From: a bacterium
GTDB taxonomy: Bacteria; Hinthialibacterota; Hinthialibacteria; Hinthialibacterales; Hinthialibacteraceae
Direction of reading: 5' to 3'
Assembly: GCA_963662285.2 (NCBI GenBank)
Contig: CAXXMV010000003.1
Span: 160,001-224,000, forward strand
Length of the DNA stretch: 64,000 bases
The translations under genes were made by a program, and so were the position numbers. Shown in pieces: positions 30,265 through 53,103 of this stretch (positions are counted from its first letter, which is position 1; the number at the start of each line of letters is the position of its first letter). The notes below the pieces were generated by a model that saw nothing but the letters and a program-made list of their open reading frames with translations, was not told where the DNA came from and did no database searches.

Positions 30265-30613
30265 TATCTACTCCTGTGTTTTATTAATGTTATATTTAAA
30301 TTATAAACAGTTTTCTCTGTTTTTATTGTTTAATCATTAAGAGTTGAGTTATGCTTTGAATCAAAGAAATATCTATTCAGCCTTATTATTAAGAAATATA
30401 TTTCTAATTTTTAACGAGCTACCTTAGCTTTATCATGCAAAGCAATCAAGTTCCGTGATTTTTATAATTATATTTTTAATTATTTTAGTCGATCATTCTA
30501 ATAATAATGATGCCTACAGCATAATTTATCCTCGATATTCCGTAAGAATCCACTATATTTACAGGAAATACTTATATAAGATAGATTCAATTATTTTGGG
30601 GAGGTACTATTTT

Positions 30614-31219
30614 ATGAAAAAGGGATTTACTTTAATCGAACTTCTGATTGTGGTTGCCATCATTGGTATTCTTGCCGCAATTGCTGTTCCCAACTTTTTA
30701 AATGCTCAAACCAGGGCTAAATTAGCCCGGATTGAGTCTGACCTGAAGTCATTATCCACAGCTTTAGCAATGTATAAAATGGATAATGGCCATGCGCCCA
30801 GGGATAACTTCCCAAACCATGGCTGGTTTTATTCCTATGCTCTGCTCACATCACCAGTAGCTTACATGAGTTCGGTGCTGCCGGATGTATTTCAAGCCAA
30901 GGATGTTTTGGCAGGCTCGGTGGATCATCGTATTGGAGGGCCAAACGGTCCTTTGACTTATGATTATGGCACTGATGTTTATCATGAATATACTGGCTCC
31001 GCCAAAAATAATAATCACCCCTGGTATAAAGCATGGAAAAATTCTGAATGGAAAATCGGCAGTTGCGGGCCGGATTGCGCATATACCAATGTGAATTTCA
31101 TTTTCGCTGGAGGTGGATGGTTAACCGGGAATTATTACAATGTCAGCAACGGCCTTATTTCGCCTGGCGATATCTTCCGGTGTGAAGAATTCTTTGAACG
31201 GGATCGACAAGGTGAATGA
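30614..31219 (+). CDS. Prepilin-type N-terminal cleavage/methylation protein (type IV pilin / T2SS pseudopilin-like)
   Basis: MKKG^FTLIELLIVVAIIGILAAIAVPNF class III signal; GGAGG SD before ATG 30614, so the longer track start is rejected. Confidence 0.88.
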   Translation: MKKGFTLIELLIVVAIIGILAAIAVPNFLNAQTRAKLARIESDLKSLSTALAMYKMDNGHAPRDNFPNHGWFYSYALLTSPVAYMSSVLPDVFQAKDVLAGSVDHRIGGPNGPLTYDYGTDVYHEYTGSAKNNNHPWYKAWKNSEWKIGSCGPDCAYTNVNFIFAGGGWLTGNYYNVSNGLISPGDIFRCEEFFERDRQGE

Positions 31220-34877: not shown

Positions 34878-34947
34878 AATAAATCCTTATATGAAATTTA
34901 TCATAAATGAATTACATACCATCAGTTCGACATCGTGATTGATTGCA

Positions 34948-37900: not shown

Positions 37901-37965
37901 AAAAAATAAGCGGCGACAAATAATCCTGATAAGGCTAAAATCTTTTTGACATTAAATATATTCAT
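34948..37965 (-). CDS. GH106 alpha-L-rhamnosidase-like glycoside hydrolase
   Basis: PPMSARPWAYWCWVNGN, GLGGFNIFD, WDAGGSWITPE, SYE, DIPRGEFW, ESFTS, FWHPDTG, LDLGKV, NVWNNRLVGD. Confidence 0.85.
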   Translation of the reverse strand: MNIFNVKKILALSGLFVAAYFLPMNICASEAAVMEDEFGTPPMSARPWAYWCWVNGNFNYAQMTYELEEIKRKGLGGFNIFDIGAYSTGSDVPAGPAFMGPESVDAIGYAVREAGRLGLGICLIASNSWDAGGSWITPEMAMMGIFTSSVKVSGAQELSINLPFPEIKIPKERMKFKNLLGEDGLPLFYKDIAVLAIPVVDKNDAIDMNQIINLTGNLDDKGLLTTSLPDGEWEIMRYVCSNTGETLKLPSPNSDGLILDHFNPQATTQHFEYILDRLQSEIGDLASSALQYLYLCSYEVRGKIWTPAFAEEFLKRRGYNMAPYLPALFDRTIQDAETTERFLFDYKKTLSDLIIEGHYINARNMVHEQGLELISEAGGPGQPLHNCPVEALRALGALDIPRGEFWNKHQVLNEKGIDLLWLIKEIACASHIYGKKLVQGESFTSFENWQEGPYELKPLADKAMCEGLNHFVFHTFAHTPPESGVPGWAYHAGTHVNTTRIWWPMADDFIAYLSRCSHLLQQGLFVADVCYYYGDQAPNFVDPKHIDPSLGYGYDYDVTNSEVILERMSVKDGRIVLPDGMSYALLALPDEVAMDWDVLKRIEQLVLNGATVVGSKPSRAYSLNQATRTDAQVKLLADKLWGECDGVNVTENKYGKGKIVWGKTLRRILDDKQISPDIQLRQEDDQNDIDFIHRRHGESDIYFVINKSAQWKKIDCAFRVEGKIPEFWHPDTGEINKQNHYRLDGAQTWVPITLPPNGSIFVVFKDKAPDLRIESIIRNPNPDAQAQNEYLTVIENEDTEWVTNVALAGRYKFTDNQQRVREINVADLPSPLTLSGAWEIRFPHGWGIPTVVEFPELISWIDSELEAIQYFSGIANYRKSFEIPSDWVNGEYQFLLDLGKVKEIARVYLNGHSLGVVWKEPFCLDITKFIQAGENYLVVDIANVWNNRLVGDGKLPPEERRTNSNIIKGPKAWGKPWKDVPLIDAGLIGPVEINVLKKIVIPKLP

Positions 37966-38082: not shown

Positions 38083-39624
38083 TTAATTATAGTTTTTAAC
38101 TTGCGGCCAAATTTCTTTTAATGTGATTTTCGGCTGACGGCATAGATAAACCGGCAGGTTGCTTTCATAGGGCATCGATAAAGGGTGAACTATCATCGTG
38201 GCTTGTTGAACGTTATCAAATACTTTATCCAAACTGTTCCGTGAAGAACCAACGCTAATGGCGATTTCACCATTCTTATCGCCCGGTCCCCAGAGAAAAT
38301 AACTGTTATGACTGCTTATCGCTTTAGGGAGATCGTATTTCTTCCCGAAATAATCTATGGCCCCGGCTTCACCATAATTTCCGGCGATTATGACGCACTT
38401 GGCTTGATCAACTTGAGGCAATTCCTGATAGACCTTCCCGATAGCGTCTACCATTTCCTCCCAGCCCTGACGGTCGGCGAAACTCTGAGGTAACGCGCCC
38501 TGGTCATGCTTTTCTTCTGCACTTGTCTTGATACCCAACTTATTGGAATATGCAATAAATACTTCTGGAGAAAGGATAGGCAAGGCCAGCGGAGCGATTA
38601 TGATTCCACCAATTATCACTACAATCACAACCGCTGGTTTTAACCAATTCCAGCCAAGGCGCCGTATAGCATTTTCAATACAGACTGCTCCTGCGGCGAA
38701 CAACATGCCGTAAACCGGTGTTAAATAATAGGCTTTACCTTTCATGATGATCATCAAGGGCAGGACGGTCGCATATATCCAGCCTAGCATGCGGAAGCGT
38801 TTTCCCTTGTTAGAAAAGAATAACCAGAACAAACCAGTCAGCCAGATTGGCGTCAGGCTAGGATGGGTCATAATGATTTGATCTTTGATGAACTGAAGCG
38901 GAGAGAGCGCAATGTTCTTGTAAAGCCGAGCATTGTTCATGAACTCCAGCGTAGGCCAATCGTTACTGAATTGCCAAATTATATGAGGTAGAAAGATTCC
39001 GAATGAGATAAGGCCTGTGATCCATAGCCGCTTATTCTTAAACCATTGTCTCTGTGGAGATAGAATCAGTCCGACGAACAATCCAAAGCCGAAGAACAGC
39101 ATGGAGATTTTGTTTATCAGCCCAATGCCCATTATCATTCCCAGAATAATCCATATCCGGGGTTGATCATCATTTTTAATTAGCGCAACCAATAAATAGG
39201 CGCTGAGCAGCCAGAACAGATAATCAAAAATGTTCATTGAGAAGTAGCCTGTAATCGCAAGGCAGATGGGCATAAGCAGCATAGACAACCCGGCCAGTCC
39301 CTGTGCGAATAAACCGCCGCCCAACTCGCGCGCTAACCTTCCCGTTAAATATACAATCAATGCTCCAACCAACACGGCGGGCAATCGCAAAGCAAAGAGA
39401 GAATCTCCCAACAACGCTTGGGTGATGAAGGCGACGACAGCGACAAATGGAGGATGATCCACATACCCGAAATCCAGATGCTGTCCGCATGCCATGTAAT
39501 AGAATTCATCCCGGAAAAAATTGTCGTGAAGATTTACCCAGCAATGGAGCAAAACCTTAAGAAGGACTAAAAAAATTAATAAGAGAGTGGCTTTTTGGTC
39601 AGAAGAATATGATGAATTTGGCAT
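38083..39624 (-). CDS. GT-C fold membrane glycosyltransferase (GT39/PMT_2, ArnT-like)
   Basis: RDEFYY, GYVDHPP, LFALRLP, ~11 TM helices, NYGEAGAI..SHNSYFLWGP. Confidence 0.85.
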   Translation of the reverse strand: MPNSSYSSDQKATLLLIFLVLLKVLLHCWVNLHDNFFRDEFYYMACGQHLDFGYVDHPPFVAVVAFITQALLGDSLFALRLPAVLVGALIVYLTGRLARELGGGLFAQGLAGLSMLLMPICLAITGYFSMNIFDYLFWLLSAYLLVALIKNDDQPRIWIILGMIMGIGLINKISMLFFGFGLFVGLILSPQRQWFKNKRLWITGLISFGIFLPHIIWQFSNDWPTLEFMNNARLYKNIALSPLQFIKDQIIMTHPSLTPIWLTGLFWLFFSNKGKRFRMLGWIYATVLPLMIIMKGKAYYLTPVYGMLFAAGAVCIENAIRRLGWNWLKPAVVIVVIIGGIIIAPLALPILSPEVFIAYSNKLGIKTSAEEKHDQGALPQSFADRQGWEEMVDAIGKVYQELPQVDQAKCVIIAGNYGEAGAIDYFGKKYDLPKAISSHNSYFLWGPGDKNGEIAISVGSSRNSLDKVFDNVQQATMIVHPLSMPYESNLPVYLCRQPKITLKEIWPQVKNYN

Positions 39625-40229
39625 TTTTATATTTCTCGCAAATTGAAGTCAAAAGATGTAAATTCTAAATGCAATTCTCTCATAATAGAGAACAGCGCGT
39701 CAAGCATCATTATCATAATATTATATTCTCAGAGTGAAAAGGAATAAAATGCCAAGTACGTCCAAGGAAATATGAGGTATAATTCTGCTCGTTACAGCTA
39801 CCCTAAATGAAGACCGCTTCAGCCTGACTCTCTCTTTCGATGATCTATCTGACGTTGGACAATGGAAATTAGGATTCCTGCCCAATGGCGCAACCTCCAG
39901 TGTTATGGGATTTCTTCAAGTTGTAGAGTAGAGCAATGATATAGCGGTTTGCGTGTAACGTTATGTTCCACGGAATATATTTGACTTTTTTTTAAATATG
40001 ATGTTTTATTTTATCAAAAATGGATTATGCTTTTAAAAGTAAAATTGGATTTTATTTTTTGCTTTTATTATATATTTTATATTTGGGAATAATCAGGTAG
40101 CAATCAACCATGAAATATCCTGCCAGTTGGAGCCTTCCATAATTCTTAACAACTTGTTTATAGAAAGCAAAAACATTTTAGACATTCAACTCTGAATTTC
40201 TACAAAAATCATTAACTGTGAGGGTTATT

Positions 40230-43200
40230 ATGAATCAATTACGTCAGCAATTAAAATTCAATATGCAGTCAGTCTTTGCCTGTTGTTTAGTGTTGTTCGC
40301 ATTTTTGGGTTTTACGCAACAAAGCTACGGGCAACTCAAACCAGATATGGGCGTCGAATTCAGTCAAGTTGACTTTAATTATGAAAAGGCCCCTTGGCTG
40401 AATTCCAGTTGGGGACGTATGAGCATTGATGTAATGATGTTGTATGAGATGACTCAAATCGATCAAGGTTATATTAATGTATTCACCAAATCAGGTTGGC
40501 ATGTGGTCAATCTGCCAATAAGCATAAATGATTTAGAAAAACAGTCCAATATAGTGACCTATCTAAATCTTGGGTTGGGCGACCAGGAAATTATCGCAAA
40601 ACTTGAGGGGGAGGAATTAGAAAACTATTTGTTGGAAGTTTCCACCCAATTAAAAGAATTTGAGGCTTTGGTTACTTATACCAAAGAATCTTTCCAGGAA
40701 ATCCAGCGGGGAGAATATATCCCGTTTCCCTTGAAAGAATCCGTAATCTGGGATGCTCAAGGCGCCAGCGATATTGAACTTTCCACTATCATCTTACCGC
40801 CGCTTATATATCTGGAACTGAAATTTAATCCTGATTTACTGAATACATCGCATAGCCTGGACAGTTCCGCGAATGTGGAAGCGGCCAAGAATCAATGCTT
40901 CCCTATGTCCATCGCTAATAGTCTGCAATATTTGAAAGATAATTTTGACCTGCCGGTTCCTCACGAACATAAGCCGGGCTTGAAAGGCGATAATTCACTA
41001 GTAGGTCAGTTGGATCAGTTTGCGGATCGCACGGCTAGTTCCCGCCGATCAGGTTCAGGAACCTGGTTCACTCCCATGTTGACAGGGAAATTCAATTATC
41101 TGCAAGAGAATGGATTAGCCGACAAGTTGATTCATCGATACCAGGGTCGTGGTTGGGGAACACCGCCCAATCAGGCGCTGCCCGCTGGAGATTTTTCCGC
41201 TGCTGGCAGCACTGCGCTGGATCAAGGCAGTACGGTCACATTTGAATGGATCTGCGAACAGATCCGCCAGGGAGAAGATGTTGAACTGGTTTTCAGTTAC
41301 GATAATTCCAGAGGAGAAGCTACCGGAGGACATGCGGTGCGCGTCTATGAATGCGGCGTGGATGATGGAAGACCTTATATAAGATATCTACATGACCGTA
41401 ATCAAAATAATGATAATGCAGGTTTGGAAACCGTAAAAGTTTTCCTAGAGGATTTAGATAATGATGGCATGTTAAATCTTGGATCAAGAAGCATTGAAAT
41501 CCGTTTTGCTCTTTCTGAGTCTATGAGGGATAAAGATAGTACTCCTACTCCAACCAATACATCTTATATACCCCCAACTCCGGAAAACACGCCGACAATT
41601 GATAAGCCGACTCCTACTAAAACGGCTACGCCGACGCCAAGATTAACTCCTACTCCGACACAAACCAATGGCGATGATCCGCCGGATGCGCCCAAGGATT
41701 GTCCTATCTATTTCTCTATCGAAGAGCCTTATGTTTTACCGAATGGCGCATCTCATGGTGATATCCTTGTGCATAATCCCGGCGGTGAGGCCTATGTACT
41801 GACTGGCGGCGCCAATCAAGACCTTTTGAAGGAATTTATTCCTTTACCATCTGAAGTGCTTCGAATTGACGCCGGGCTGGATGGCTTTGATATTATCCAA
41901 CTTGATCAATCAGTTTCTAGCGATGAACCTTATGCACGCCATAAAATAATCTTCACGGTCGAAAAACCGATTAAAGTAAGCAACCCGAATCATTCCGCCT
42001 ATGGGGTAATTCTAAATGATGGCGATTTGCTACTCAATAATGGAGGAGTAATTCTCGCTCAAGCCCTGTTCGCTCCTCTTCAGTTACTAAATAGAACCGG
42101 GGGAGTCATTGAATATTTGGGTATAGATGCGATTGAATTAGAAGGTTTATTGAATATCTTTGATAAATTGGAAAACCGTGTTATTGGGAACTTGAAAGAA
42201 TTGGTTGAAATCAGCAATGGTGAAGCTATAAACATTTACTTTTCTTTTGAAGAAATTAATGAAGAATACACATCTAGTTCAGGAAGTTTGCTTCCCGAAC
42301 GTACAATAGTAGGCGCAGATGATCTGATAGGGATTCATGTTTCATCCAGTCATATAAGCGCATGGGTTGAACGGTCCGGCGCTGATGGAACTCCAACAAC
42401 CGCCCAAAGTTTATTTGTGGAATTTTCATCTCTTAATAATATGGGTTTGGATGCTGCGGGAACCTGTCTGCCTGAAGATAAAGCCTATTCTCATTTAGAA
42501 ACAGTCTATTTTTCGACGGAATTGAATGATGATATATATCCCATAGAATTCAAAGAAGGCGATTTGTTGGTTGATCGTTCGGAAAAACCATATAACGAAG
42601 TTATTGCCACTAATTTTTATCTGACCGGATTTGACTCAAAGGATTGGGGATTGGATGCTGTTGATCTTCATCCTGAACGGTTTGAGGAAAAACCTCAAGA
42701 TACGCCTACAACGCAACCAAAACCAATGCCCACGCTTACTCCAACTATATCAACCGATCAAAAGAACTGCGTGAAGGCCAGTGATTACTACACCAGCATT
42801 ATCGAAAATCTGGACTCAGTTGAACTTGGTCTAGTAGCAATCAAGTCAGCTATTAGCGCCAGCGGCAGTCCTCTCGGCTTAAGCATTCGTGATTGTTCTG
42901 AAGACGGTTTGATGGACGTTTGGGTGTCATCAAGCGAATTGAGCTACAGCAATCCAGCTGCGATAATCATGTCAGCTTCTATCTGTGCAGGCAACGCGCC
43001 ATCGATGGTTGAGGTCACCCTGCGTCAATACTACCAATGCAAACTGATCGCCTATGATGATAACGGAACTGTAGTTGATTCAGTAGATGCAGCAGTAGGC
43101 AGCGCAGAGCAGACTCTTACCCTGACCAGCGCCACAGGCATTCGCGTAATCGAACTCATCGGCGCCGAAATATGCATAACCAAAATCTGTTGGGAATGCG

Positions 43201-46200
43201 AGCCGATTGTTAAACCCACGCCGACTAAGCAAATAGTTGAATCAACGCCAACCTTGCCCATTGAAGAAAAGGATTGCGTTCAGGCCAGTGATATATATAC
43301 CAGCGATATGGATAATCTTGATTCAGTCGAATTAGGTCTAGTGTCGATCAAATCCGCTATAAGCGCCAGCGGCAGTCCATTAGGCTTAAGCGTACGTGAT
43401 TGTTCAGAAGACGGTTTGATGGATGTTTGGGTGTCATCAAGCGAATTGAGTTACGGTTCGCTCGCGTCAATTATAATGTCGCCCAACATATGCAACGGCA
43501 ACGCGCCATCGATGGTTGAGGTATACTTACAGCATTTCTATCAGTGCAAACTTATTGCCTATGATGACGGTGGAACTGTAGTTGATACGGTTGACGCGGC
43601 GCCGGATTCTACTCCGCAAATCTTGACCCTGACCAGCGCCACTGGAATAAGGATGATAGAAATTATCGGAGCGGAAATATGCATAACAAAAATCTGTTGG
43701 GAATGCGAGCTGATTGTTAAACCCACGCCGACTAAGCAAATAGTTGAACCAACGCCTACCTTGCCCATTGAAGAAAAGGATTGCGTTCAGGCCAGTGATA
43801 TATATACCAGCGATATGGATAATCTTGATTCAGTCGAATTAGGTCTAGTGTCGATCAAATCCGCTATAAGCGCCAGCGGCAGTCCATTAGGCTTAAGCGT
43901 ACGTGATTGTTCAGAAGACGGTTTGATGGACGTTTGGGTGTCATCAAGCGAATTGAGTTACAGCAATCCAGCTGCGATAATCATGTCAGCCTCCATCTGT
44001 GCAGGCAACGCGCCATCGATGGTTGAGGTCACCCTGCGTCAATACTACCAATGCAAACTGATCGCCTATGATGATAACGGAACCGTAGTTGATTCAGTAG
44101 ATGCAGCAGTAGGCAGCGCAGAGCAGACTCTTACCCTGACCAGCGCCACAGGCATTCGCGTAATCGAACTCATCGGCGCCGAAATATGCATAACCAAAAT
44201 CTGTTGGGAATGCGAGCCGATTGTTAAACCCACGCCGACTAAGCAAATAGTTGAATCAACGCCAACCTTGCCCATTGAAGAAAAGGATTGCGTTCAGGCC
44301 AGTGATATATATACCAGCGATATGGATAATCTTGATTCAGTCGAATTAGGTCTAGTGTCGATCAAATCCGCTATAAGCGCCAGCGGCAGTCCATTAGGCT
44401 TAAGCATACGTGATTGTTCAGAAGACGGTTTGATGGATGTCTGGGTGTCATCAAGCGATCCAAGTTACGGTTCGCTCGCGTCAATTATAATGTCGCCCAA
44501 CATATGCAATGGCAAAGCGTCATCGATGGTTGAGGTATACCTACAGCATTTCTATCAGTGCAAACTTATTGCCTATGATGACGGTGGAACTGTAGTTGAT
44601 ACGGTTGACGCGGCGCCGGATTCTACTCCGCAAATCTTGACCCTGACCAGCGCCACTGGAATAAGGATGATAGAAATAATCGGCGCCGAAATATGCATAA
44701 CCAAAATCTGTTGGGAATGCGAGCTGATTGTTAAACCCACGCCGACTAAGCAAATAGTTGAACCAACGCCAACCTTGCCCATTGAAGAAAAGGATTGCGT
44801 AAAGGCCAGCGATTTTTACGCCAGCGCCGTTGAGAATTTAAACTCGGTCGATTTAGGCTCGGTTTCGATTAAACCAGCCATTGAAATAACCGGCGCCATT
44901 TTCGGTTTAAGCGTGCGCGATTGTTCAGAAGACGGTTTGATGGACGTATGGGTTTCATCCAGTGAAGCAAGTTACAGCAGCCCCGCTGCGATTGTCATGT
45001 CTTCTGATATCTGCGCAGGTAAAGCGCCATCGATAGTAGAGGTTACCCTGCGTCATTACTTTGAATGCAAACTGGTAGCCTATGATGACGCCGGAACTGT
45101 AGTTGATTCAGTATTTGCAGCTGCAGGCAGTGCAGAACAAACTCTTACTCTAACCAGCGCCACCGGCATTCGCGTTATAGAAATAATCGGCGCGGAAATA
45201 TGCATCACCGAAATATGCTGGGAATGCGAGCCGATTGATAAACCTACGCCGACTGCTACTCCTCCAGAAGGTGATGAAGGATTAACTCCGGATGACGGAA
45301 TAACCTTCAATCAAGTAGATTTTATGTTTGAAAAATCCCAGTGGCAAAATTCCAGCTGGGGTCGGATAAGTATTAATCCTTATATCCTTACCCGCAACAC
45401 CAAGATCAGCCGGGGTTACTTGAATGTTTATACTGATAAGGGCTGGCATGTAGTAAACCTACCTATCAATGCGGACAATCTAACTAGCGCTGATACCCAA
45501 AGAACAGATTTGGTAACTTATTTCAACCTTGGAATTGTTGATCCAGCGGAAATTAAAGATAAAAGCGATGATGAGATTAAGTCCATTCTGTTAGAAAAAT
45601 CCTATCAGCTTACATCGTTCGTCGCTCATGTTACTTTCACTCAGGAACCAATTGTCAAGAGGGTATTGGGTCAATTAGTATCTTTCCCCATAGAAGAAAA
45701 CATTATATGGGATGCTCAGGGCGTAAGCGATATAACCATATCCGCTTTCCACTTGCCGCCGTTTATTATAACAGATATTTCAGATATCATATTGGATTCT
45801 ATATTCTCTTACCATACTCAACCACAGTCGGCTAACGTTGAAACCGCAAATAACCAATGCTTCCCCATGGCTATAGCCAATAGCCTGCAATACCTGGAAA
45901 ACGAGTTCAGCCTTTCTGTTCCTCATGACCATGTGATGGGACTCAAAGGCGACAATTCGCTGGTTGGTCAATTGGATTCCTACGCTAACCGCTCCGTCTC
46001 ATCCCGTCGCAGCGGTTCCGGTACATGGTTCACGCCCATGATAGACGGTAAATTCAAATATCTATCGGACAACAATCTATCCGGCGACCTGATCCATAAA
46101 TACCAGGGACGCGGCTGGGGATCGCCGCCCAACCAGGCGCTTCCGGCAGGCGACTACACATCAAATGGCAGCACCATTAAAGATGAAGGCGCTGTAGTCA

Positions 46201-49200
46201 CCTTCGATTGGATTTGTCAGCAAATCCAGGAAGGCGAAGATGTCGAACTTGTCTTCAGTTACGATGACGCATCGGGAAACGCCACTGGCGGCCATGCAGT
46301 AAGAGTATTCGAATGCGGTAACGTTCTTGGAAAGCCATATATAAAATACCTGCACGATAGCAACCAAAGCAATGATAGCGCTGGGTTGGAAACGGTTCAG
46401 GTATTTCTCGAAGACCTGGACGGCGACGGCATATTGAACCTTGGTTCAGCAAGCCGGGAAATCCGCTTCGCTATGGCTGAATCGATGAAAGAGGATACGA
46501 TACTAATTAATCCTAATATGGGATTAATGCTGGAGCAAGTCATTTTTACTTTTGATGAAACCCAGCAAATTGTCTCCAATTGGGGTCGCCTGGTGATTGA
46601 TCCTTATGCATTGCAAAAGAACCTTGGCGTCGAAAGGGGCTTTATCAACGTTTACAACGATAATGGCTGGTTGGTCATGAATCTTCCGCTTGATACTTCC
46701 TCAGCCGACGCCGACAGCAAGTTAGTAACTTATTTTAATCTGGGTCTGCAAGATGGCGAACAAATCGAACTCGTGAAGAGTATGGCGATTCACGCTGAAT
46801 TCTCTGTTAAGCCAGTTGATAAAACACCTATGGATCAAGATGGAAAACTGATACTATCGACGTTTGAGTTGCGCAATCCGGCCATCTGGGACGCCCAGGG
46901 AATCAGCGACAATGAGAACCCATCAATCAGCCTCGCTCCACCTTATATAATAAATAAAGATATTATCTTTACCTCACTCTTTGAAAAACATACTCAGGAA
47001 CACACATCAAATGTGCAGACTGCGCATAATCAATGCTTCCCCATGGCTGTAGCCAATAGCCTGCAATACCTCGAAAACGAGTTCGGTTTGTCAGTACCGA
47101 ATGACCATGTGATGGGATTGAAAGGCGATAATTCATTAGTAGGCAAATTAGATTCCTACGCTAACCGCTCCGTATCATCCCGTCGCAGCGGTTCCGGTAC
47201 ATGGTTTACGCCCATGATAGACGGTAAATTCAAATATTTATCGGAAAACAATCTGTCTGGAGACTTAATCCACAAGTACCAGGGACGCGGCTGGGGATCG
47301 CCGCCTAACCAGGCGCTTCCAGCAGGCGACTACACCGCCCATGGCATCACCATCAAAGATGAAGGCGCCGTAGTCACCATAGATTGGATTTGTCAGCAAA
47401 TTAAAGACGGAGAAGATGTCGAACTGGTATTCAGTTACGATGATGCATCTGGTAACGCCACTGGCGGCCACGCGGTGCGCGTGTATGAATGCGGTAAAAT
47501 TCTTGGCAAACCATATATCAAATACCTGCATGACAGCAACCAAAGCGACGATAGCGCTGGTTTGGAAACAGTATTGGTATATCCCGAAGATCTGGATGGA
47601 GATGGTATATTGAATCTTGGTTCAGCGAGCCGGGAGATCCGCTTCGCTATGGCTGAATCGTTTGTAAGCGAAATTGATAATACACCTACTCCCATAGCGC
47701 CTACGCCTACTAAGATAATTACCAAACCTACTCCTACTCCAGTAATTACCAAACCTACGCCTACTCCGGTAATTACTAAACCCACTCCTACTTCAATGAT
47801 TACCAAACCTACGCCTACTCCGGTAATTACTAAACCCACTCCTACTTCAATGATTACCAAACCTACGCCTACTCCGGTAATCACCAAACCTACGCCTACG
47901 CCTACTTTCTGGTATAGCGGAAATCCGGTTTATGACGATCTGGTAATATCCCAGGGATTTGGTGGAGAGACTCTGATCAATATACGTTACTACAATGAGA
48001 TCACCGATTCATTAACATCTATCCGTCACTCATTCATCGGAGCGCCAGGTGGATTTATATCTCGAGTTGGCGGTGGAACAGGACGAATGACCTATCTATC
48101 AGTGGGTGATTTGAATGGTGATGGAACAGAAGATATCATTACTTCTTTCGGACCGATAGTAGAAGAATCAGTTTTCCCCAACATCGTTGTCGTTCGTGAT
48201 TCCAAAACCAAGCAAGTAATCGGTAATTCTTTTGTAGCATTTCCGGTTGGCGACAAGACATCAGTACAGTTAAATTCAGGTGATGTACGAACCGCGGTAG
48301 GCGACTTTATCGGTTCAGGGCTGCCTCAGTTGGCGGTAACTCAAGGACAAGGCGGTAATGGCATCATCCGGCTTTATCAATACACCAACAAACTGCCGCC
48401 TAACAGCTGGGAGGTCGTCGGTCAGTTCAACGGTTTGCCTTTAGGATTGGTGGAACAAAAGGTATTGGATGATACCACCTATATCGGATTGACCTTGGCT
48501 GCGGGAGATTTGGATCAGGACGGTTTTGATGAATTAGTGGTCGGCCAATCCAATGGTCCCGCCTCGCAAACTATCTTCCATGTTCTGGATATTAACAGCG
48601 ACGGCGGCATCGCCAAACGGAATATCTATGCCGGATTCAAACCTCAATTCCGTGCTCATGGCGGCATCGAGTTAGCGGTTGGAGACCTTAACGGTGACAA
48701 ATATCCGGAAATCATTGTCGGCAATATGGGTAATCTGCGCAACTTTGGCGACCAACGTGACACCGTACCTTTGAATTTAGTAGGTATAATTTCACCCGTC
48801 ATTACGGATAAACAGATTACCGGATTCAGAAGACCTGCTGGAAAAAGCGTATTCAATGCCTTTTCTAATGAAGACAATCCTTCAGGCGCGATCAGCATGA
48901 CAGTCGGTGAATTCGATGGCAATCCGATCAATGGCAAAGAATTAGTCATTGGAACAGGCGCTTATATGGATATTGAGGGTATGAATACCAATTATCTTCA
49001 TCCCGCCGATGTTCCAAGATATAAGATTATGAAAGTTGAGTATGAAGAAGAAACCATTAGGAATATTAAAATATTAGGACCGACCAAGGGTTATGTGGCT
49101 TTCCTTGGCAAAGCGGTTCCTAGTAGTAAATCCATTTATCTGGCCGCCATTCCAAAATTTGTGATTCCCGATCTAATCAATACGCCAACCCCGACACCTA

Positions 49201-51803
49201 CGGCAACTCCGGTAAAACCATCGGTTGGTTTTACCGTACCGGGAAAACCATTATTCGTCGGTTCGTATGCCAAAATTCCGGTTGAAATCACTCCAGCCCT
49301 ATTCACTATCGATGAATTTGATTTCTTCGTACAGGAAGGCCCTAAAGGCGGCGCCGTTTCCATCTCCAAAGATGAAGACTTTGATCCATTGAATCCTGAT
49401 ATTATGCTGTTAGCCGGATATCAACCGGGAACCTATAAACTGCAAGCAAAACATACATCAACCGGAATAATCGTCGGTGAGAAGCAGTTTGAAGTGACTG
49501 ATCTTTGGAAGGGAGAGACGGAAGGTCCTGCAGTATGGTTCACGGGACTCAATCAAAATGGTTACGCCGGTTCAGCCTGGGGAGGCGGTCCCGCCGGTCC
49601 TCAAAACATTAACATTAAACCGGCTACCGGAACCAGGCGGGTCGCCATTCTGCTGGTAGACACAAGCTCCGAACGGTATTCAAACGATAATGCCATAATC
49701 CAGGGTCATAAAGACCGCTGGTTGAACGAAGCAATTAACGGCGTCAATGATGGCGGCAAGACATACAGCGTTTCTCACTTCTATCGTGAAGTCTCCTATA
49801 ATAATTTCACCCTTACCGGACAGGTTTTTGGTCCGGTAAGTCTGACCGGAGAATTTAAGGATTACATCAATCCTGATGGATCGCCCAAAGGCAGTTATTA
49901 TCAATCCTGCTTCACGGCTGGCGATAGCCTTATCAATTACAATAATTTCGACACGCTGGTCTGCGTATCCAAATCAGTCATCGCCTCCGGTTCCAGCGCA
50001 TGGCCCTATGCTTCAATCGGTGAATGGGGGCCGTTCACGACAGCTGAAGGTAAAGTGAACTATGGTTGCATCTCCATGCCCAATGAATGGGGAACAACCT
50101 CAGCGCGTGAAATCTACGAAACCCTGTCGCACGAGATGGGGCATAACCTCGGTTTAGGCGATATGTATACTCCCAAAGTCGCCATGCCCAACTCACCTCC
50201 AACTTACCGTAATCTGGAAGACTGGGACATGATGGATGATGATAACATCTTCCCCCATTTCTCGGTTATGCACCGTATGATGCTGGGCTGGGTTCCGGCC
50301 AGTTGGCTGCAAACATTCAATTTCGCTAACGGCGGAGTTCCCATAAACCAGACTATCAGTTTGCATCCCATAGAACTGGGCGCTCCACCGGCTGGTAAAA
50401 AGACCGCAGTCGAAATCCGCATTGCTGACGGATGGAATTACTACTTCGAGTATCGATCAAAACAAGCTGCTCAAATCGCCGATCAAGGCGTTCCTGGTAA
50501 TGGTCGCATCCTGGGTTCTGATGGAGTCTCGGCGCCCTGGGTTCCTCCCATCGCCCGGCCTTACATACTATTGCTCAATAATGACGCCGACGGCGATGGC
50601 AGCGTCTTGGATAATGGAGATGATTACAAGGAGACCGATTTCTCTGATCCAGCGTATCCCACAGATTTCATGGTTGAAGCCAGCGGGATAGATGGCTCGA
50701 AGGGTGATATCACTATCAAATACGGCGTCAATGGCAAGCCTGATCCTTCAATCCGGCCTTGGCCGGCTAGTGCGGATCGTCGTTATCAAAGCCCGGACAT
50801 CGAAGTTCAGAACACCCGCAATCTGGCGGATGCTGCATGGTTCAACGTGCCCTGGATCAACCACTCCAATACCATTATCGCAAAAGTCAAAAACCGGGGA
50901 ACGCTCAACGCCCCTGGCGTGACAGTTAACTTCTATATCAAGAACTTTAATGTTGGAGGCGCTCCGGAAACCTATCTTGGAACCAGTACGAAGGATATTG
51001 CTGCTGGCGCTACGGTTGATTTCACTTATCCATCCTGGGTTCCACCCAGCGGCGGGCATTACTGCATCATTGTACGGATTCCGCTATATCAGAATCCCAA
51101 CGATCCCACTGTTGTTGAAATGACCGAACTCAACAACATGGCGCAATCAAATTACGACCGCTTCATCTCAGCCACCGCATCTCCCGCGAAACGCGTCATA
51201 TCATTTGTTGAAGTAGGCAATCCCTATGATGAAACCAGCCGCGTCTTTGTCACCGCAGGTCAAAGCAACCCGTTCTATCGGACATACCTGGAACATGCAT
51301 GGCTGGTCTTAAAACCCAATGAGACCAAGAAAGTCAGGGTAATGTTCGAATACGCTACGGATGCTTTGGACAGCGCAGGAATCGATTTCCAGGATGATTG
51401 GACCAAGCATCAACGGTTGCCCAATAACGTAGATTTCGCATCCTTCGTCGATTATCCCAGGGATTTTCCAAGACACGCCAAGCATGAATCAGGCGGCGTC
51501 CAGGTGCAGGTCGTAACCGGTCGCGCCACCAAAATTATCGGTATGGAAATTGGTAAAGAACGCGCCTATGGTTCAGTCGTAACGGTTGATAATGGAACCG
51601 GCGTCTTTGGCGGCAAGGTCATTTTGATTCTGACGGTCAAAGTGAATAACGAAGACAAGGAAGTGTACGAGGAAGCGCAAGTCGATGCCCAAGGTCATTT
51701 CAGCGCATCCATAACAACATTGAATTGGGAACGCCTACAGGTCTACTACGTCCCATCATCGGGATATGCAGATTCATACAGCGATGTAATATCAAGTCCA
51801 TAA
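40230..51803 (+). CDS. Giant secreted multidomain protease-like protein (3x papain/C39-like module, 5x Cys-rich repeat, FG-GAP repeats, M6 metalloprotease, CARDB-like domain)
   Basis: Single ~3,860-codon ORF; signal peptide; NQCFPM..ANSLQYL / GGHAVRV / YLHD three times; GDLNGDG-type repeats; HEMGHNLGLGD plus WDMMD Met-turn. Start at ATG 40230 (GAGGG SD) or GTG 40218. Confidence 0.85.
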   Translation: MNQLRQQLKFNMQSVFACCLVLFAFLGFTQQSYGQLKPDMGVEFSQVDFNYEKAPWLNSSWGRMSIDVMMLYEMTQIDQGYINVFTKSGWHVVNLPISINDLEKQSNIVTYLNLGLGDQEIIAKLEGEELENYLLEVSTQLKEFEALVTYTKESFQEIQRGEYIPFPLKESVIWDAQGASDIELSTIILPPLIYLELKFNPDLLNTSHSLDSSANVEAAKNQCFPMSIANSLQYLKDNFDLPVPHEHKPGLKGDNSLVGQLDQFADRTASSRRSGSGTWFTPMLTGKFNYLQENGLADKLIHRYQGRGWGTPPNQALPAGDFSAAGSTALDQGSTVTFEWICEQIRQGEDVELVFSYDNSRGEATGGHAVRVYECGVDDGRPYIRYLHDRNQNNDNAGLETVKVFLEDLDNDGMLNLGSRSIEIRFALSESMRDKDSTPTPTNTSYIPPTPENTPTIDKPTPTKTATPTPRLTPTPTQTNGDDPPDAPKDCPIYFSIEEPYVLPNGASHGDILVHNPGGEAYVLTGGANQDLLKEFIPLPSEVLRIDAGLDGFDIIQLDQSVSSDEPYARHKIIFTVEKPIKVSNPNHSAYGVILNDGDLLLNNGGVILAQALFAPLQLLNRTGGVIEYLGIDAIELEGLLNIFDKLENRVIGNLKELVEISNGEAINIYFSFEEINEEYTSSSGSLLPERTIVGADDLIGIHVSSSHISAWVERSGADGTPTTAQSLFVEFSSLNNMGLDAAGTCLPEDKAYSHLETVYFSTELNDDIYPIEFKEGDLLVDRSEKPYNEVIATNFYLTGFDSKDWGLDAVDLHPERFEEKPQDTPTTQPKPMPTLTPTISTDQKNCVKASDYYTSIIENLDSVELGLVAIKSAISASGSPLGLSIRDCSEDGLMDVWVSSSELSYSNPAAIIMSASICAGNAPSMVEVTLRQYYQCKLIAYDDNGTVVDSVDAAVGSAEQTLTLTSATGIRVIELIGAEICITKICWECEPIVKPTPTKQIVESTPTLPIEEKDCVQASDIYTSDMDNLDSVELGLVSIKSAISASGSPLGLSVRDCSEDGLMDVWVSSSELSYGSLASIIMSPNICNGNAPSMVEVYLQHFYQCKLIAYDDGGTVVDTVDAAPDSTPQILTLTSATGIRMIEIIGAEICITKICWECELIVKPTPTKQIVEPTPTLPIEEKDCVQASDIYTSDMDNLDSVELGLVSIKSAISASGSPLGLSVRDCSEDGLMDVWVSSSELSYSNPAAIIMSASICAGNAPSMVEVTLRQYYQCKLIAYDDNGTVVDSVDAAVGSAEQTLTLTSATGIRVIELIGAEICITKICWECEPIVKPTPTKQIVESTPTLPIEEKDCVQASDIYTSDMDNLDSVELGLVSIKSAISASGSPLGLSIRDCSEDGLMDVWVSSSDPSYGSLASIIMSPNICNGKASSMVEVYLQHFYQCKLIAYDDGGTVVDTVDAAPDSTPQILTLTSATGIRMIEIIGAEICITKICWECELIVKPTPTKQIVEPTPTLPIEEKDCVKASDFYASAVENLNSVDLGSVSIKPAIEITGAIFGLSVRDCSEDGLMDVWVSSSEASYSSPAAIVMSSDICAGKAPSIVEVTLRHYFECKLVAYDDAGTVVDSVFAAAGSAEQTLTLTSATGIRVIEIIGAEICITEICWECEPIDKPTPTATPPEGDEGLTPDDGITFNQVDFMFEKSQWQNSSWGRISINPYILTRNTKISRGYLNVYTDKGWHVVNLPINADNLTSADTQRTDLVTYFNLGIVDPAEIKDKSDDEIKSILLEKSYQLTSFVAHVTFTQEPIVKRVLGQLVSFPIEENIIWDAQGVSDITISAFHLPPFIITDISDIILDSIFSYHTQPQSANVETANNQCFPMAIANSLQYLENEFSLSVPHDHVMGLKGDNSLVGQLDSYANRSVSSRRSGSGTWFTPMIDGKFKYLSDNNLSGDLIHKYQGRGWGSPPNQALPAGDYTSNGSTIKDEGAVVTFDWICQQIQEGEDVELVFSYDDASGNATGGHAVRVFECGNVLGKPYIKYLHDSNQSNDSAGLETVQVFLEDLDGDGILNLGSASREIRFAMAESMKEDTILINPNMGLMLEQVIFTFDETQQIVSNWGRLVIDPYALQKNLGVERGFINVYNDNGWLVMNLPLDTSSADADSKLVTYFNLGLQDGEQIELVKSMAIHAEFSVKPVDKTPMDQDGKLILSTFELRNPAIWDAQGISDNENPSISLAPPYIINKDIIFTSLFEKHTQEHTSNVQTAHNQCFPMAVANSLQYLENEFGLSVPNDHVMGLKGDNSLVGKLDSYANRSVSSRRSGSGTWFTPMIDGKFKYLSENNLSGDLIHKYQGRGWGSPPNQALPAGDYTAHGITIKDEGAVVTIDWICQQIKDGEDVELVFSYDDASGNATGGHAVRVYECGKILGKPYIKYLHDSNQSDDSAGLETVLVYPEDLDGDGILNLGSASREIRFAMAESFVSEIDNTPTPIAPTPTKIITKPTPTPVITKPTPTPVITKPTPTSMITKPTPTPVITKPTPTSMITKPTPTPVITKPTPTPTFWYSGNPVYDDLVISQGFGGETLINIRYYNEITDSLTSIRHSFIGAPGGFISRVGGGTGRMTYLSVGDLNGDGTEDIITSFGPIVEESVFPNIVVVRDSKTKQVIGNSFVAFPVGDKTSVQLNSGDVRTAVGDFIGSGLPQLAVTQGQGGNGIIRLYQYTNKLPPNSWEVVGQFNGLPLGLVEQKVLDDTTYIGLTLAAGDLDQDGFDELVVGQSNGPASQTIFHVLDINSDGGIAKRNIYAGFKPQFRAHGGIELAVGDLNGDKYPEIIVGNMGNLRNFGDQRDTVPLNLVGIISPVITDKQITGFRRPAGKSVFNAFSNEDNPSGAISMTVGEFDGNPINGKELVIGTGAYMDIEGMNTNYLHPADVPRYKIMKVEYEEETIRNIKILGPTKGYVAFLGKAVPSSKSIYLAAIPKFVIPDLINTPTPTPTATPVKPSVGFTVPGKPLFVGSYAKIPVEITPALFTIDEFDFFVQEGPKGGAVSISKDEDFDPLNPDIMLLAGYQPGTYKLQAKHTSTGIIVGEKQFEVTDLWKGETEGPAVWFTGLNQNGYAGSAWGGGPAGPQNINIKPATGTRRVAILLVDTSSERYSNDNAIIQGHKDRWLNEAINGVNDGGKTYSVSHFYREVSYNNFTLTGQVFGPVSLTGEFKDYINPDGSPKGSYYQSCFTAGDSLINYNNFDTLVCVSKSVIASGSSAWPYASIGEWGPFTTAEGKVNYGCISMPNEWGTTSAREIYETLSHEMGHNLGLGDMYTPKVAMPNSPPTYRNLEDWDMMDDDNIFPHFSVMHRMMLGWVPASWLQTFNFANGGVPINQTISLHPIELGAPPAGKKTAVEIRIADGWNYYFEYRSKQAAQIADQGVPGNGRILGSDGVSAPWVPPIARPYILLLNNDADGDGSVLDNGDDYKETDFSDPAYPTDFMVEASGIDGSKGDITIKYGVNGKPDPSIRPWPASADRRYQSPDIEVQNTRNLADAAWFNVPWINHSNTIIAKVKNRGTLNAPGVTVNFYIKNFNVGGAPETYLGTSTKDIAAGATVDFTYPSWVPPSGGHYCIIVRIPLYQNPNDPTVVEMTELNNMAQSNYDRFISATASPAKRVISFVEVGNPYDETSRVFVTAGQSNPFYRTYLEHAWLVLKPNETKKVRVMFEYATDALDSAGIDFQDDWTKHQRLPNNVDFASFVDYPRDFPRHAKHESGGVQVQVVTGRATKIIGMEIGKERAYGSVVTVDNGTGVFGGKVILILTVKVNNEDKEVYEEAQVDAQGHFSASITTLNWERLQVYYVPSSGYADSYSDVISSP
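42762..45230 (+). repeat. Five tandem 507-bp (169-aa) intragenic repeats
   Basis: First Cys codon of each unit at 42768, 43275, 43782, 44289 and 44796 (exact 507-bp spacing); near-identical DNA. Confidence 0.95.
47718..47906 (+). repeat. Seven 27-bp tandem repeats encoding ITKPTPT(PV/SM)
   Basis: ATTACCAAACCTAC(G/T)CCTACTCC..-type units read directly. Confidence 0.9.
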
Positions 51804-51832
51804 CATCCAGCCCATAATTCAGACATTAATAA

Positions 51833-51863
51833 AAGAGGGGAATGAGTCAATCATTCCCCTCTT
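51833..51863 (+). terminator. Terminator hairpin after the giant gene
   Basis: AAGAGGGGAATGA/TCATTCCCCTCTT 13-bp inverted repeat. Confidence 0.7.
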
Positions 51864-52005
51864 GATTTGTTTCACATTTTGTAGGATAGGCTAAAATATT
51901 AGTAAGGTGGGTTAGCTTTACCGGCACACCGAAAATACACCGTATCAAAAAATCCCCTCACCTTCGCGTAGCCCTCCACCAAAGCAACTTCTCGCAGCCG
52001 CCGCG

Positions 52006-53103
52006 CTACTTGTTATTAGACAATTCCCCAATCAACTCTCGAGTAACCGAGGTCATCGCCTGTGCGTAGGTTTCCATATCGATTATCTGGAACCGTTTAA
52101 TCGTGCATGAATCAGGGACGTCTTTGTATGACTCTTTACCTGCGTCATCCACATGGACTTTGACTGGTGAGAAGGTGAATATCTCCCATACTTGGTCATC
52201 ACTGCGCACTTTATCTGCTGGAACAGAAATCCAATCGCCTTCGCGGATCACGTATTTCCGGTTCGCTATATATGCAAAAACAGCGGTGCACCACAAGTTT
52301 CGATTGCCCGACAATACTTTCTGTTTTTCATTATCAAGCGCATCTTTATGCAGAAATGCGATGGGGTCGCTTTCGTCTTTATGAAGCAATGCGTAAATGA
52401 AATAATTGAGTACCGGCGCGGACGCATCCTGCAGAAGCTCGGCGTGACTGGCTTTCCAGTAAGATGCTTTTCCATCATCGTTATGCCAAAGCCCGCCATC
52501 AAAACATGGAACCCAATACAAAGGTAATCCTGCGTTCATCAAGCATTTATAGGCGTTGGGATCAAGTCCGACATTATACTCCTGGAATGCTCCTTGAGCG
52601 TCGCCGATGAAATTGAAAATTCTGGAGACCTTTTTCCTGAATAATTCCGGCTTTCGGTTATAAGCAACAGCCACATCACGTAAACTTCCTACTGCTATGA
52701 TTGTTACAGGAACTTGCGATTGTTCGAGCGTTTCTAATATCAGCAATACGGCTTGCTGGTATTTATCCGCCTCGTCGAGACGTTGGTCGGCGGGATGCTC
52801 CAGTTTTTGAGATAGCCCGATAGCACAGGGAACATTGCGCCCGGTCAGGTGATTGAGTTGTCCAACTGGAATGCGTCCCGGCTGTTTATCCTGTTTCATG
52901 CCTTGATCGAGGATGATCGCCTTGATATCAATTTCAGGAATGGCGAAGATGGACGCCAGATCAAAATGATCATCGGGATCGTCATGTGGATGAAAAAGAT
53001 CCGAACAATAGATCAGTGGAATCTTAACATCATCAGCACTTGTGTTGATCATGGAGGATTGCATTAAACAAAACAACATAATAATCGTGATTAATCTATT
53101 CAT
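52006..53103 (-). CDS. Secreted nucleoside hydrolase (IU-NH)-like protein
   Basis: Signal peptide; Asp-rich SDLFHPHDDPDDHFD; IAVGSLRDVA; EYNVGLDP. Start at ATG 53103 (GGGAG SD). Confidence 0.72.
   Translation of the reverse strand: MNRLITIIMLFCLMQSSMINTSADDVKIPLIYCSDLFHPHDDPDDHFDLASIFAIPEIDIKAIILDQGMKQDKQPGRIPVGQLNHLTGRNVPCAIGLSQKLEHPADQRLDEADKYQQAVLLILETLEQSQVPVTIIAVGSLRDVAVAYNRKPELFRKKVSRIFNFIGDAQGAFQEYNVGLDPNAYKCLMNAGLPLYWVPCFDGGLWHNDDGKASYWKASHAELLQDASAPVLNYFIYALLHKDESDPIAFLHKDALDNEKQKVLSGNRNLWCTAVFAYIANRKYVIREGDWISVPADKVRSDDQVWEIFTFSPVKVHVDDAGKESYKDVPDSCTIKRFQIIDMETYAQAMTSVTRELIGELSNNK

Follow-up and report, generated by a model that had tools for sequence, protein, structure and literature searches.

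What kind of protein is encoded by a reading frame of 11.6 kb in which papain-like and metallopeptidase-like domains follow one another in a single chain, and how might its candidate active sites be held in check? The gene in question lies on the forward strand of a 64,000-nucleotide stretch of DNA, here referred to as the window (positions 160,001 to 224,000 of contig CAXXMV010000003.1, assembly GCA_963662285.2), from a bacterium of the phylum Hinthialibacterota. An earlier note, made from the sequence and its translations, described a giant secreted “poly-protease” with three papain/C39-like cysteine modules and one M6 zinc metalloprotease. Following up that description computationally, we favor, with modest confidence, the reading that the gene encodes a Sec-secreted mosaic pro-enzyme that would serve as a latent extracellular multi-protease.

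The open reading frame (ORF) runs without interruption from 40218 to 51803, and the previously reported single ORF at 40230 to 51803, with all of its domains, is open throughout. The protein has 3861 amino acids counted from a GTG codon and 3857 from the ATG at 40230, rather than the 3,860 first given. This ATG is the likely start codon; it is preceded by a GAGG-like Shine-Dalgarno sequence 7 to 8 nucleotides upstream and is also the start in an identical database protein (P0002). The chain contains two parts that were absent from the earlier list, five 169-amino-acid Cys-rich repeats and a 331-amino-acid domain, X1, and the Pro/Thr tethers that had been described were located between domains (Table 1).

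Three modules of a widespread, unnamed family

The three cysteine modules (A, B, and C) align with one another over ∼395 residues, with identities of 60% for A and B, 54% for A and C, and 70% for B and C. Their boundaries were borne out by this alignment, and the codons originally named for the catalytic Cys and His, as for the HEMGH motif farther downstream, are exact. The YLHD motif lies at residues 390, 2044, and 2436, and the DLDxDG loop at residues 412, 2066, and 2458.

When the module was searched exhaustively with HMMER against 1.84 billion representatives (clusters at 50% identity), 544 matched at E ≤ 1e-3; of these, 396 reached E ≤ 1e-10 and 183 reached E ≤ 1e-30. Another search yielded a list of 151 proteins, 220 to 700 amino acids long; the named ones are called “hypothetical protein,” except for one JGI entry, “uncharacterized protein (TIGR03437 family).” Both bacteria and archaea are represented, with the labels Methanolobus, Woesearchaeota, Syntrophoarchaeum, Thermoplasmata, Brocadiaceae, Fontivita, Planctomycetota, Acidobacteria, Chloroflexota, and “Candidatus Hinthialibacter.” Most members are single secreted proteins of ∼400 to 450 amino acids, and a few others have two units per chain. 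A crude hydrophobic-run rule found a hydrophobic leader in 151 of 171 members with an early N-domain; the giant protein has a predicted Sec-type signal peptide of its own and is probably secreted. As judged from homology, then, the module is a widespread unnamed family, which had been missed earlier.

Each module is made of two halves. Local hidden Markov models (HMMs) of both halves placed them in the order N-half, catalytic half in 222 of 243 proteins (a set in which P0001 and P0002 are the same protein), and the N-half was found in 231 of 242 family proteins. Among 241 near-full catalytic domains, 238 retain the Cys and all 241 retain the His and the Asp; a Gln precedes the Cys in 235, an Asn stands eight residues upstream in 226, and the DxDxDG loop is present in 202 to 208. 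Modules A, B, and C retain every one of these features. A separate observation concerns P0114 (3926 amino acids), a distant member of the family, which has five catalytic halves at a regular spacing of ∼546 amino acids, ∼28% identical to the modules of the window and without a recognizable N-half.

A papain fold and a predicted active-site plug

AlphaFold 2 modeled module B from a 42-sequence alignment with a predicted local distance difference test (pLDDT) score of 93.3 and a predicted template modeling score of 0.92. In module numbering, the helix at 192 to 208 opens at Cys192, His337 lies in the strand at 333 to 347, and Asp358 ends the strand at 350 to 358. A Foldseek search of this model against the PDB gave 13 matches at E ≤ 1e-3, all to papain-fold peptidases (Mac-1/IdeS, staphopains, prostaphopain B, C39-like, and dionain), so the check by AlphaFold and Foldseek suggested in the earlier note returned papain-fold enzymes. 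An independent structure search, VIA, returned 48 chains at Z ≥ 8, nearly all of clan CA: the top chain, 22oc, is titled “P210 CD lyase” (Z 13.2, root mean square deviation 3.2, 164 residues aligned) and is followed by xylellain (Z 12.8, 3.9, 176), staphopain C (Z 12.7, 3.7, 166), PeiR (Z 12.2), Der f 1 (Z 11.9), IdeS (Z 11.5), 3erv (C39-like; Z 11.4), and Alr0975 (Z 11.3). These rows are tied within ∼1 to 2 Z, and thus the fold fixes the clan and not the family. The fold neighbors all fall in “cluster I” of the papain-like classification, as given in the part of that source consulted (PMC10318531). A papain-fold (clan CA) assignment of the catalytic half is therefore supported by the model, the conservation, the Cys helix, and the His and Asp strands; the “C39-like” part of the original description holds at the level of fold and not in the sequence models.

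When modeled by itself, the N-half forms a beta-sandwich decorated with helices (pLDDT 87.3). We split module B at residue 175/176 and predicted the parts as a two-chain complex, with controls, in three runs. The score was 0.89 in all three, and the best control reached 0.19; the score mark is attained by 58 of 80 solved complexes, as against 2 of 110 mismatched pairs, counts that hold only roughly here, the input being one chain cut in two with a custom alignment. The runs share at least 88% of their contacts, with a partner pLDDT of at least 82. The confident interface joins residues 190 to 193, 333 to 338, and 356 to 363 of the catalytic half to residues 140 to 160 of the N-part. Around the conserved Cys, His, and Asp, the predicted contacts pair His337 with 144 to 147, residue 193 (beside the Cys) with 147, and residue 359 with 142; these contacts are an indirect sign that the three residues converge into one site.

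The contacting segment is an aromatic-N-A-x-G loop, WDAQG in this protein. Of 234 N-domains, 227 keep Gly146, 187 keep Ala144, and 189 have W, Y, or F at the first position. The ∼24 residues that follow this loop are the least conserved of the module (mean column conservation, 0.23), and Gly146 and Asn184 stand at a nearly constant distance from each other (32 to 44 residues). Solved pro-forms (pro-Der p 1, procaricain, procathepsins X and H, pro-rhodesain, and xylellain) align to the model from residues ∼140 to 144, and mature papain-like forms align from ∼172 to 181. The predicted plug has the form of a zymogen-like arrangement in silico, and the earlier guess that the N-part is an inhibitory pro-domain gains computational support from the interface prediction.

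In the arrangement that we propose, three two-part units, each a beta-sandwich plus a clan CA domain, would sit on Pro/Thr tethers and be joined by X1, the Cys-rich repeats, and the FG-GAP region. Each cysteine module would be latent, with the loop at the end of its N-half lying over the Cys/His pair and followed by a poorly conserved tether of ∼35 residues. Outside the cell, the plug would be removed or displaced; cleavage of the tether is one route, and the conserved DxDxDG loop at the interface of the two halves may contribute to unplugging. Up to four active sites of two chemistries would then be held near one substrate, on which the noncatalytic X1, Cys-rich, FG-GAP, and CARDB parts would bind or space the enzymes. 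The role would be extracellular breakdown of protein or glycoprotein polymers by a polymer-degrading bacterium resembling those of the Planctomycetes-Verrucomicrobia-Chlamydiae (PVC) group. The ORF with its repeats, the fold, the conserved residues, the fusion, and the predicted plug contacts were observed here; secretion, latency, activation, peptidase activity, and substrate are what we infer.

The same loop could mark a cutting site. The cysteine modules might cleave their own chain at or near the A-x-G plug or the tether and, outside the cell, release independent enzymes (CatA-X1-repeats, CatB, and CatC-FG-GAP-M6 cassette), in which case they would be processing rather than bulk-degrading peptidases. 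The position of the A-x-G motif on the catalytic His and beside the Cys in the model suits self-cutting, as do a tether of variable sequence but fairly constant length after the plug and the defined cut points that three units per chain would provide. Precedents are found in the parts consulted of two sources: C39 and S8 domains of giant Omnitrophota proteins are proposed to self-cut (10.1101/2023.11.21.568195), and T-Mac of Treponema denticola is cleaved into two units (PMC11833123). Most family members, however, are single secreted proteins with nothing to release, so processing in cis cannot by itself be the function of the family. We consider a self-cutting polyprotein unlikely, and it would be compatible with a zymogen rather than exclusive of it. 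A broader proposal combines the two: the module as a new, widespread class of secreted cysteine-peptidase zymogens with the loop as pseudo-substrate, and the giant chain as a polyprotein that cuts itself into four enzymes of two classes for feeding. This we regard as speculative and rather improbable; if true, it would parallel, in a bacterium, the way in which viral polyproteins are processed.

A whole M6-like protein at the C terminus

Searching with residues 3110 to 3500 identified 366 homologous proteins of 686 to 2000 amino acids at E ≤ 1e-3. Among the 120 matches listed, identity is 53 to 65%, and most are ∼860 amino acids long with a CARDB domain; their source names (JGI, NCBI) are “M6 family metalloprotease-like protein” or “CARDB domain-containing protein,” and they include proteins of Hyalangium, Corallococcus, Bacillus cereus, Okibacterium, and Mucilaginibacter. 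By BLAST, residues 3003 to 3856 are co-linear end to end with this stand-alone family at 50 to 59% identity (for example, residues 11 to 847 of P0246 match 3010 to 3852 of the window protein at 58.6%). The end-to-end match indicates that the giant gene ends in a whole protein that stands alone elsewhere, joined through a Pro/Thr linker. By this comparison, the last ∼855 amino acids are a complete stand-alone-type protein fused in frame, which the earlier note had missed. The stand-alone M6-like/CARDB proteins (P0244 to P0363) are themselves widespread, in myxobacteria, B. cereus, actinobacteria, and Bacteroidota.

The signature of M6 peptidases is HExxHxxGxxD with a conserved Met downstream. 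Here, HEMGHNLGLGD starts at residue 3305, with WDMMD at 3336; H3305, E3306, H3309, D3315, W3336, and M3339 occupy columns that are at least 97% identical in a 121-sequence alignment, and all are kept in the window. A TIGR03296-like domain occurs in this gene only within the window's genome. A tblastn search of the cassette against plasmids gave four partial matches, none informative.

Weighing the peptidase reading

A number of results tell against a latent multi-protease. The modules pass no Pfam or NCBIfam model, giving a subthreshold RickCE_cat row and subthreshold chance NCBIfam rows. PDB sequence searches gave nothing below E 0.46 with module B and, with the family profile, rows for cathepsin B that are insignificant (E 0.8) and align at GGHAVR. 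The C39 and C39_2 models (PF03412 and PF13529) did not match the modules at E ≤ 1 in whole-protein or half-module Pfam scans; PF13529 matched another contig of the window's genome and no module, and PF09028 (Mac-1) had 0 matches in that genome at E ≤ 10. For the N-half, Foldseek returned none at E ≤ 1e-3 (best E, 0.083), and none of the VIA chains reached Z 5 (best Z, 4.3), the rows being generic fibronectin type III- or immunoglobulin-like sandwiches and no known pro-domain; a weak or absent match of this kind is no proof of a new fold. An N-terminal pro-domain was also hypothesized for the Mac-1-like protein T-Mac and was refuted by experiment, according to the portion of the report consulted (PMC11833123).

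The cassette core likewise falls short of the curated models: TIGR03296 scored 50.4 bits against a cut-off of 110.8, though with E 2.7e-13 over profile positions 21 to 233 of 286, and PF05547 scored 13.1 bits against 22. PDB searches of the cassette returned nonsignificant, HExxH-local rows (sequence, MMP-12 at E 0.069; profile, 4j4m at E 0.46). Moreover, its stand-alone homologs begin with short basic N termini without an evident signal peptide. The M6 metzincin originally proposed thus keeps its zinc motif and Met intact but misses the curated M6 cut-offs, and the core is, by sequence, M6-like without being a member of a curated M6 family.

The RickCE_cat row (clan CE) was rejected as a family assignment at 20.2 bits against a cut-off of 27. 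The catalytic order in clan CE is His-Asp-Cys; here, it is Cys...His...Asp.

What argues for calling the modules peptidases is their fold and their putative triad, and the papain fold also hosts isopeptidases, acyltransferases, and transglutaminases. They might instead be nonproteolytic, acting on wall or matrix polymers as an isopeptidase or amidase, a transglutaminase-type cross-linker or deamidase, an acyltransferase, or a lyase. The “lyase”-titled chain that tops the VIA search, the pseudomurein endoisopeptidase PeiR, and the phytochelatin-synthase-like Alr0975 are in keeping with such chemistry, as are the absence of any peptidase family match by sequence and the polysaccharide-lyase-like beta-helix domains at the C terminus of one relative. 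Set against these, most of the 50 VIA rows listed and all 13 significant Foldseek matches are endopeptidases, the plugging by an upstream segment and the alignment of pro-forms from ∼140 are typical of secreted papain-like endopeptidases, and the module is fused here to a metallopeptidase. We rate a nonproteolytic role as improbable and retain the latent multi-protease as the preferred reading.

Accessory domains and relatives

X1 has no match in a Pfam scan, and only 6 homologous proteins were found. It accompanies the cysteine module co-linearly (modA-X1) in P0015, P0023, and loci L014, L016, L017, and L018, is present in a single copy in the window's genome, and has a GC content at third codon positions (GC3) of 0.32, compared with 0.42 to 0.51 elsewhere in the gene (0.51 in the cassette). 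Its translation has an internal rhythm, with GD(I/L)L and GLDA motifs recurring three to four times, which suggests an internally repeated fold, and the whole domain is tandemly triplicated in relatives L016, P0015, and P0364.

The Cys-rich repeat belongs to no Pfam family and, in an Atlas search, to no named Atlas family. Copies 1 and 3 are 95% and copies 2 and 4 are 97% identical in protein, and 242 nucleotides at 43119 to 43360 recur exactly at 44133 to 44374, a spacing of 1014 nucleotides; the five repeats look like the product of a recent duplication of a two-repeat (1014-nucleotide) unit. One distant copy lies elsewhere in the window's genome, and the ortholog in genome G005 has two copies only.

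The FG-GAP-like and CARDB-like domains named at the outset both pass Pfam gathering cut-offs, FG-GAP (PF01839) in three stretches with 54.7 bits against 22.1 (E 8.6e-15) and CARDB (PF07705) with 33.5 bits against 22.7 (E 5.2e-08). FG-GAP_3 also matches the FG-GAP region (E 1.9e-10), which likely folds as a beta-propeller, and the cassette has a weak Big_6-like C-terminal end.

In the window's genome (7.29 Mb, 8 contigs), the cysteine module occurs in this gene only. Of 40 related genomes, it was found in 7 of the 19 from the same GTDB family and in 0 of the 21 outside it; the closest module relatives have the submitter labels “Candidatus Omnitrophota” and “Candidatus Hinthialibacter.” Writing mod for a module and CR for a Cys-rich repeat, G005 has a co-linear modA-X1-CR-CR-modB-modC ORF that is ended by a contig edge. 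Locus L013 of G007 (contig C7, 9088 to 18348, plus strand) encodes a 3087-amino-acid CR-mod-CR-CR-CR-FG-GAP protein that ends in right-handed beta-helix/DUF1565/NosD-like domains in place of the metalloprotease. G011 has mod-X1-FG-GAP plus 1100 amino acids of unassigned sequence, G004 has mod-X1-X1-X1, a partial “Candidatus Hinthialibacter” protein (P0003) has CR-module-FG-GAP, and P0013 also has a module followed by FG-GAP. These arrangements indicate that the N-terminal two-thirds is an inherited lineage kit, whereas the C-terminal catalytic cassette varies.

A common N-terminal kit with different C-terminal cassettes (M6-like or beta-helix) could also be that of a contact or predation weapon, or of something like a polymorphic toxin, in which a secreted stalk directed at other cells bears an exchangeable effector and the cysteine modules act as releasing peptidases. 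A link to predation has been drawn for giant multi-enzyme proteins of PVC-group bacteria (10.1101/2023.11.21.568195), and the polymorphic-toxin concept supplies a precedent (PMC3482391), each as given in the part of the source consulted. The surroundings of the gene speak against it: the next gene is convergent and nucleoside-hydrolase-like, with no immunity-like small gene adjacent, and the neighborhood is one of polysaccharide catabolism. Polymorphic toxins have an RHS or filamentous-hemagglutinin-like stalk and an adjacent immunity gene; Pfam and NCBIfam scans of the giant protein returned no RHS, filamentous-hemagglutinin, or known trafficking domain. Its cassette, furthermore, is a widespread protein of 855 amino acids rather than a short toxin tip. 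We hold a weapon to be very improbable and continue with the latent multi-protease.

Assembly support

The earlier note had raised the prospect of an assembly chimera. In such a case, the ORF, or at least the M6 fusion and the fivefold array, would be chimeric or miscounted at linker and repeat sequences. Contigs for comparison came from two public runs of one sample, which is possibly the source and hence not independent. Their tiling of the gene contains 0 mismatches, and contigs of both runs span 47852 to 52200 and beyond, including the FG-GAP/cassette joint. Others span 39800 to 42929, 44771 to 46028, 46001 to 47204, and 47177 to 47774, that is, all junctions except inside the repeat arrays; no listed contig covers the interior of 42929 to 44771 or of 47775 to 47851, and the comparison is uninformative on assembly there. 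The frame is open over its whole length, G005 independently shows modA-X1-CR-CR-modB-modC, and P0003 and P0013 have FG-GAP after a module.

Other signs point toward an artifact. The Cys-rich array is broken into small short-read contigs with depth of up to 24.6 compared with ∼8 to 9, and the exact 242-nucleotide repeat and the GC3 difference between X1 and the cassette are of the same tendency. One contig of sequencing run X1 agrees with the window on the right side of 49213, a point immediately ahead of the cassette, and has 255 unlike nucleotides to the left; another contig of that run continues with unlike sequence after 44899. Run X2 shows neither divergence; in both places, branching of the assembly graph at recurrent linker words or a variant sequence context is a possible cause. 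The contigs that support the M6 fusion are those of the possible source sample, and the cassette query used here found no M6-like cassette in the module-bearing genomes G004, G005, G007, G011, and G017 (85 to 96% complete). With the junctions outside the repeat arrays bridged, we give an assembly artifact a very slim chance; repeat number is the least certain feature of the gene.

Relation to known systems

The best Foldseek match is IdeS/Mac-1 (MEROPS C66, PF09028; 2au1, E 1.7e-5), which shares the papain fold, the Cys...His...Asp order, and a His-to-Asp distance of ∼21 residues; C0362 (T-Mac/TDE0362) reaches a VIA Z of 10.8, and an Atlas feature search, taken as a lead only, also indicated Mac-1 clusters at 0.89 to 0.90. 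Unlike Mac-1, the modules fail PF09028, are 8 to 10% identical in structural alignments, and have their own N-terminal beta-sandwich, A-x-G plug, and DxDxDG loop, and the host is environmental and not a pathogen. T-Mac, too, is made as a multi-unit pre-protein and then cleaved, but experiments showed that its N-terminal unit is not a pro-domain, in contrast to our reading of the modules (PMC11833123, consulted in part).

Among peptidases with pro-forms, prostaphopain B (C47) aligns at VIA Z 11.5 with 212 residues over model positions 49 to 400. As in the pro-forms of clan CA (prointerpain, procathepsins, pro-Der p 1, and xylellain), an upstream segment is predicted to cover the cleft. Unlike the staphopains and these pro-forms, the modules have no sequence-model match, their N-half reaches Z ≤ 4.3 to solved pro-domains, and up to three units occur per chain. 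The C39/C39_2 peptidases have a similarly compact papain fold (PCAT1 and ComA peptidase domains, Z 10.6 to 11.1), and the A-x-G segment at the active site recalls the Gly-Gly recognition of C39. They differ in that the modules have no Pfam match and no fused ABC transporter, have a larger catalytic half (∼225 amino acids), and have a Gln directly before the Cys.

The cassette has the same HExxHxxGxxD plus Met as immune inhibitor A-type M6 peptidases but is below their cut-offs; unlike the stand-alone M6-like/CARDB proteins, it is here the C terminus of a 3857-amino-acid secreted chain. Giant proteins of Omnitrophota and the PVC group (“Archaeovorins,” Dockerin-type) are also long secreted mosaics with peptidase and glycan-active domains, found in related lineages, and Hinthialibacterota is named among phyla with very large genes; the giant proteins described there, unlike this one, have 10,000 to more than 40,000 amino acids, transmembrane and SecA-like parts, and C39 or S8 peptidases (10.1101/2023.11.21.568195, consulted in part). 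In the preprint text available to us, the words cysteine, papain, and metalloprotease have 0 occurrences (10.1101/2023.11.21.568195). The earlier note did not recognize the architecture as described, and our literature searches likewise found no description of it or of the module; listing in supplementary tables (10.1101/2023.11.21.568195, PMC10318531) or in MEROPS is possible.

Four aspects look new: a large clan CA family named by no curated model, the predicted beta-sandwich N-half with a conserved A-x-G active-site loop, the presence of three such units in one chain, and the fusion of these units to a complete metallopeptidase. Papain-fold zymogens, M6-like peptidases, FG-GAP regions, multidomain secreted hydrolases, and Pro/Thr-tethered multi-enzymes are kinds already known, and the finding overturns nothing established. 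Should the modules be active, a cysteine peptidase family that ranges over planctomycetes, acidobacteria, Chloroflexota, methanogens, and other archaea would have been fully missed by current annotation. The family appears to own a distinct type of pro-domain and possibly a new latency mechanism, for the study of which the 400-amino-acid module offers a defined, expressible unit. How uncultured degraders build their enzymes is also illustrated by the lineage-specific kit of module, X1, Cys-rich repeat, and FG-GAP, which is strung on Pro/Thr tethers and combined with interchangeable catalytic cassettes at the C terminus.

Gene neighborhood and feature coordinates

Table 1. Features of the giant gene and its product in window coordinates
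Feature	Position	Strand	Residues	Basis and details
Gene, 3857-aa protein	40230..51803	+		ORF scan, translation, identical database protein
Sec-type signal peptide (predicted)	40230..40334	+	5-39	Hydrophobic core VFACCLVLFAFLGF; predicted cleavage between ...SYG and Q, from translation
Module A	40335..41522	+	40-435	Module alignment
Module A N-half, beta-sandwich, putative pro-domain	40338..40832	+		HMM envelope; WDAQG plug 40749-40763
Module A papain-fold half	40860..41522	+		Cys227 at 40896, His372 at 41331, Asp391 in YLHD, DLDNDG 41451-41468
Pro/Thr-rich linker 1	41523..41699	+	436-494	
X1, 331-aa domain without family	41700..42692	+	495-825	Goes along with Cys module in relatives
Pro/Thr linker		+	826-847	
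Five tandem 169-aa (507-nt) Cys-rich repeats	42759..45242	+	848-1675	7 Cys each
Module B	45285..46484	+	1690-2089	Module alignment
Module B N-half	45285..45761	+		WDAQG plug 45708-45722
Module B papain-fold half	45813..46484	+		Cys1881 at 45858, His2026 at 46293, Asp2047, DLDGDG 46413-46430
Module C	46509..47660	+	2098-2481	Module alignment
Module C N-half	46509..46946	+		WDAQG plug 46887-46901
Module C papain-fold half	46989..47660	+		Cys2273 at 47034, His2418 at 47469, Asp2439, DLDGDG 47589-47606
Pro/Thr linker 3	47670..47933	+	2485-2572	Coded by 27/54-nt tandem array 47700-47899 (ITKPTPTPV units)
FG-GAP repeat region	47910..49172	+	~2565-2985	Pfam; DxDxDG loop 48507-48524
Pro/Thr linker 4, fusion joint to C-terminal cassette	49149..49253	+	2978-3012	
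C-terminal cassette	49224..51800	+	3003-3861	Co-linear with stand-alone ~850-900-aa M6-like/CARDB proteins
M6-like zinc metallopeptidase core	49728..50309	+	3171-3364	HEMGHNLGLGD 50130-50162; WDMMD with Met3339 50223-50237
CARDB domain	50793..51143	+	3526-3642	Pfam, above cut-off
Terminator-like hairpin, 13-bp stem	51833..51863	+		30 nt past stop codon

Genes near the giant gene encode proteins of glycoside hydrolase families GH106 and GH20, a GDSL esterase, a carbohydrate-esterase-like hydrolase, a pseudopilin-like protein, and a PMT_2 glycosyltransferase, enzymes that fit a polymer-degrading PVC-group bacterium. The protein with the pseudopilin (N-terminal methylation) motif (30455 to 31219, plus strand) adjoins large GH106 and xylose-isomerase-like-barrel proteins (31944 to 37965, minus strand), a neighborhood typical for polysaccharide degraders of the PVC group. 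“Candidatus Hinthialibacter” is described as a PVC-group polymer degrader in the part of the source consulted (PMC9324843).

Upstream of the giant gene, a spacer of ∼590 nucleotides separates it from a divergent gene (38083 to 39624, minus strand) for a homolog of PMT_2/dolichyl-phosphate-mannose-type protein mannosyltransferases (E 4.4e-23). Pro/Thr-rich linkers are usual targets of protein O-mannosylation, and the two genes may be functionally paired because the giant protein has long linkers of this kind.

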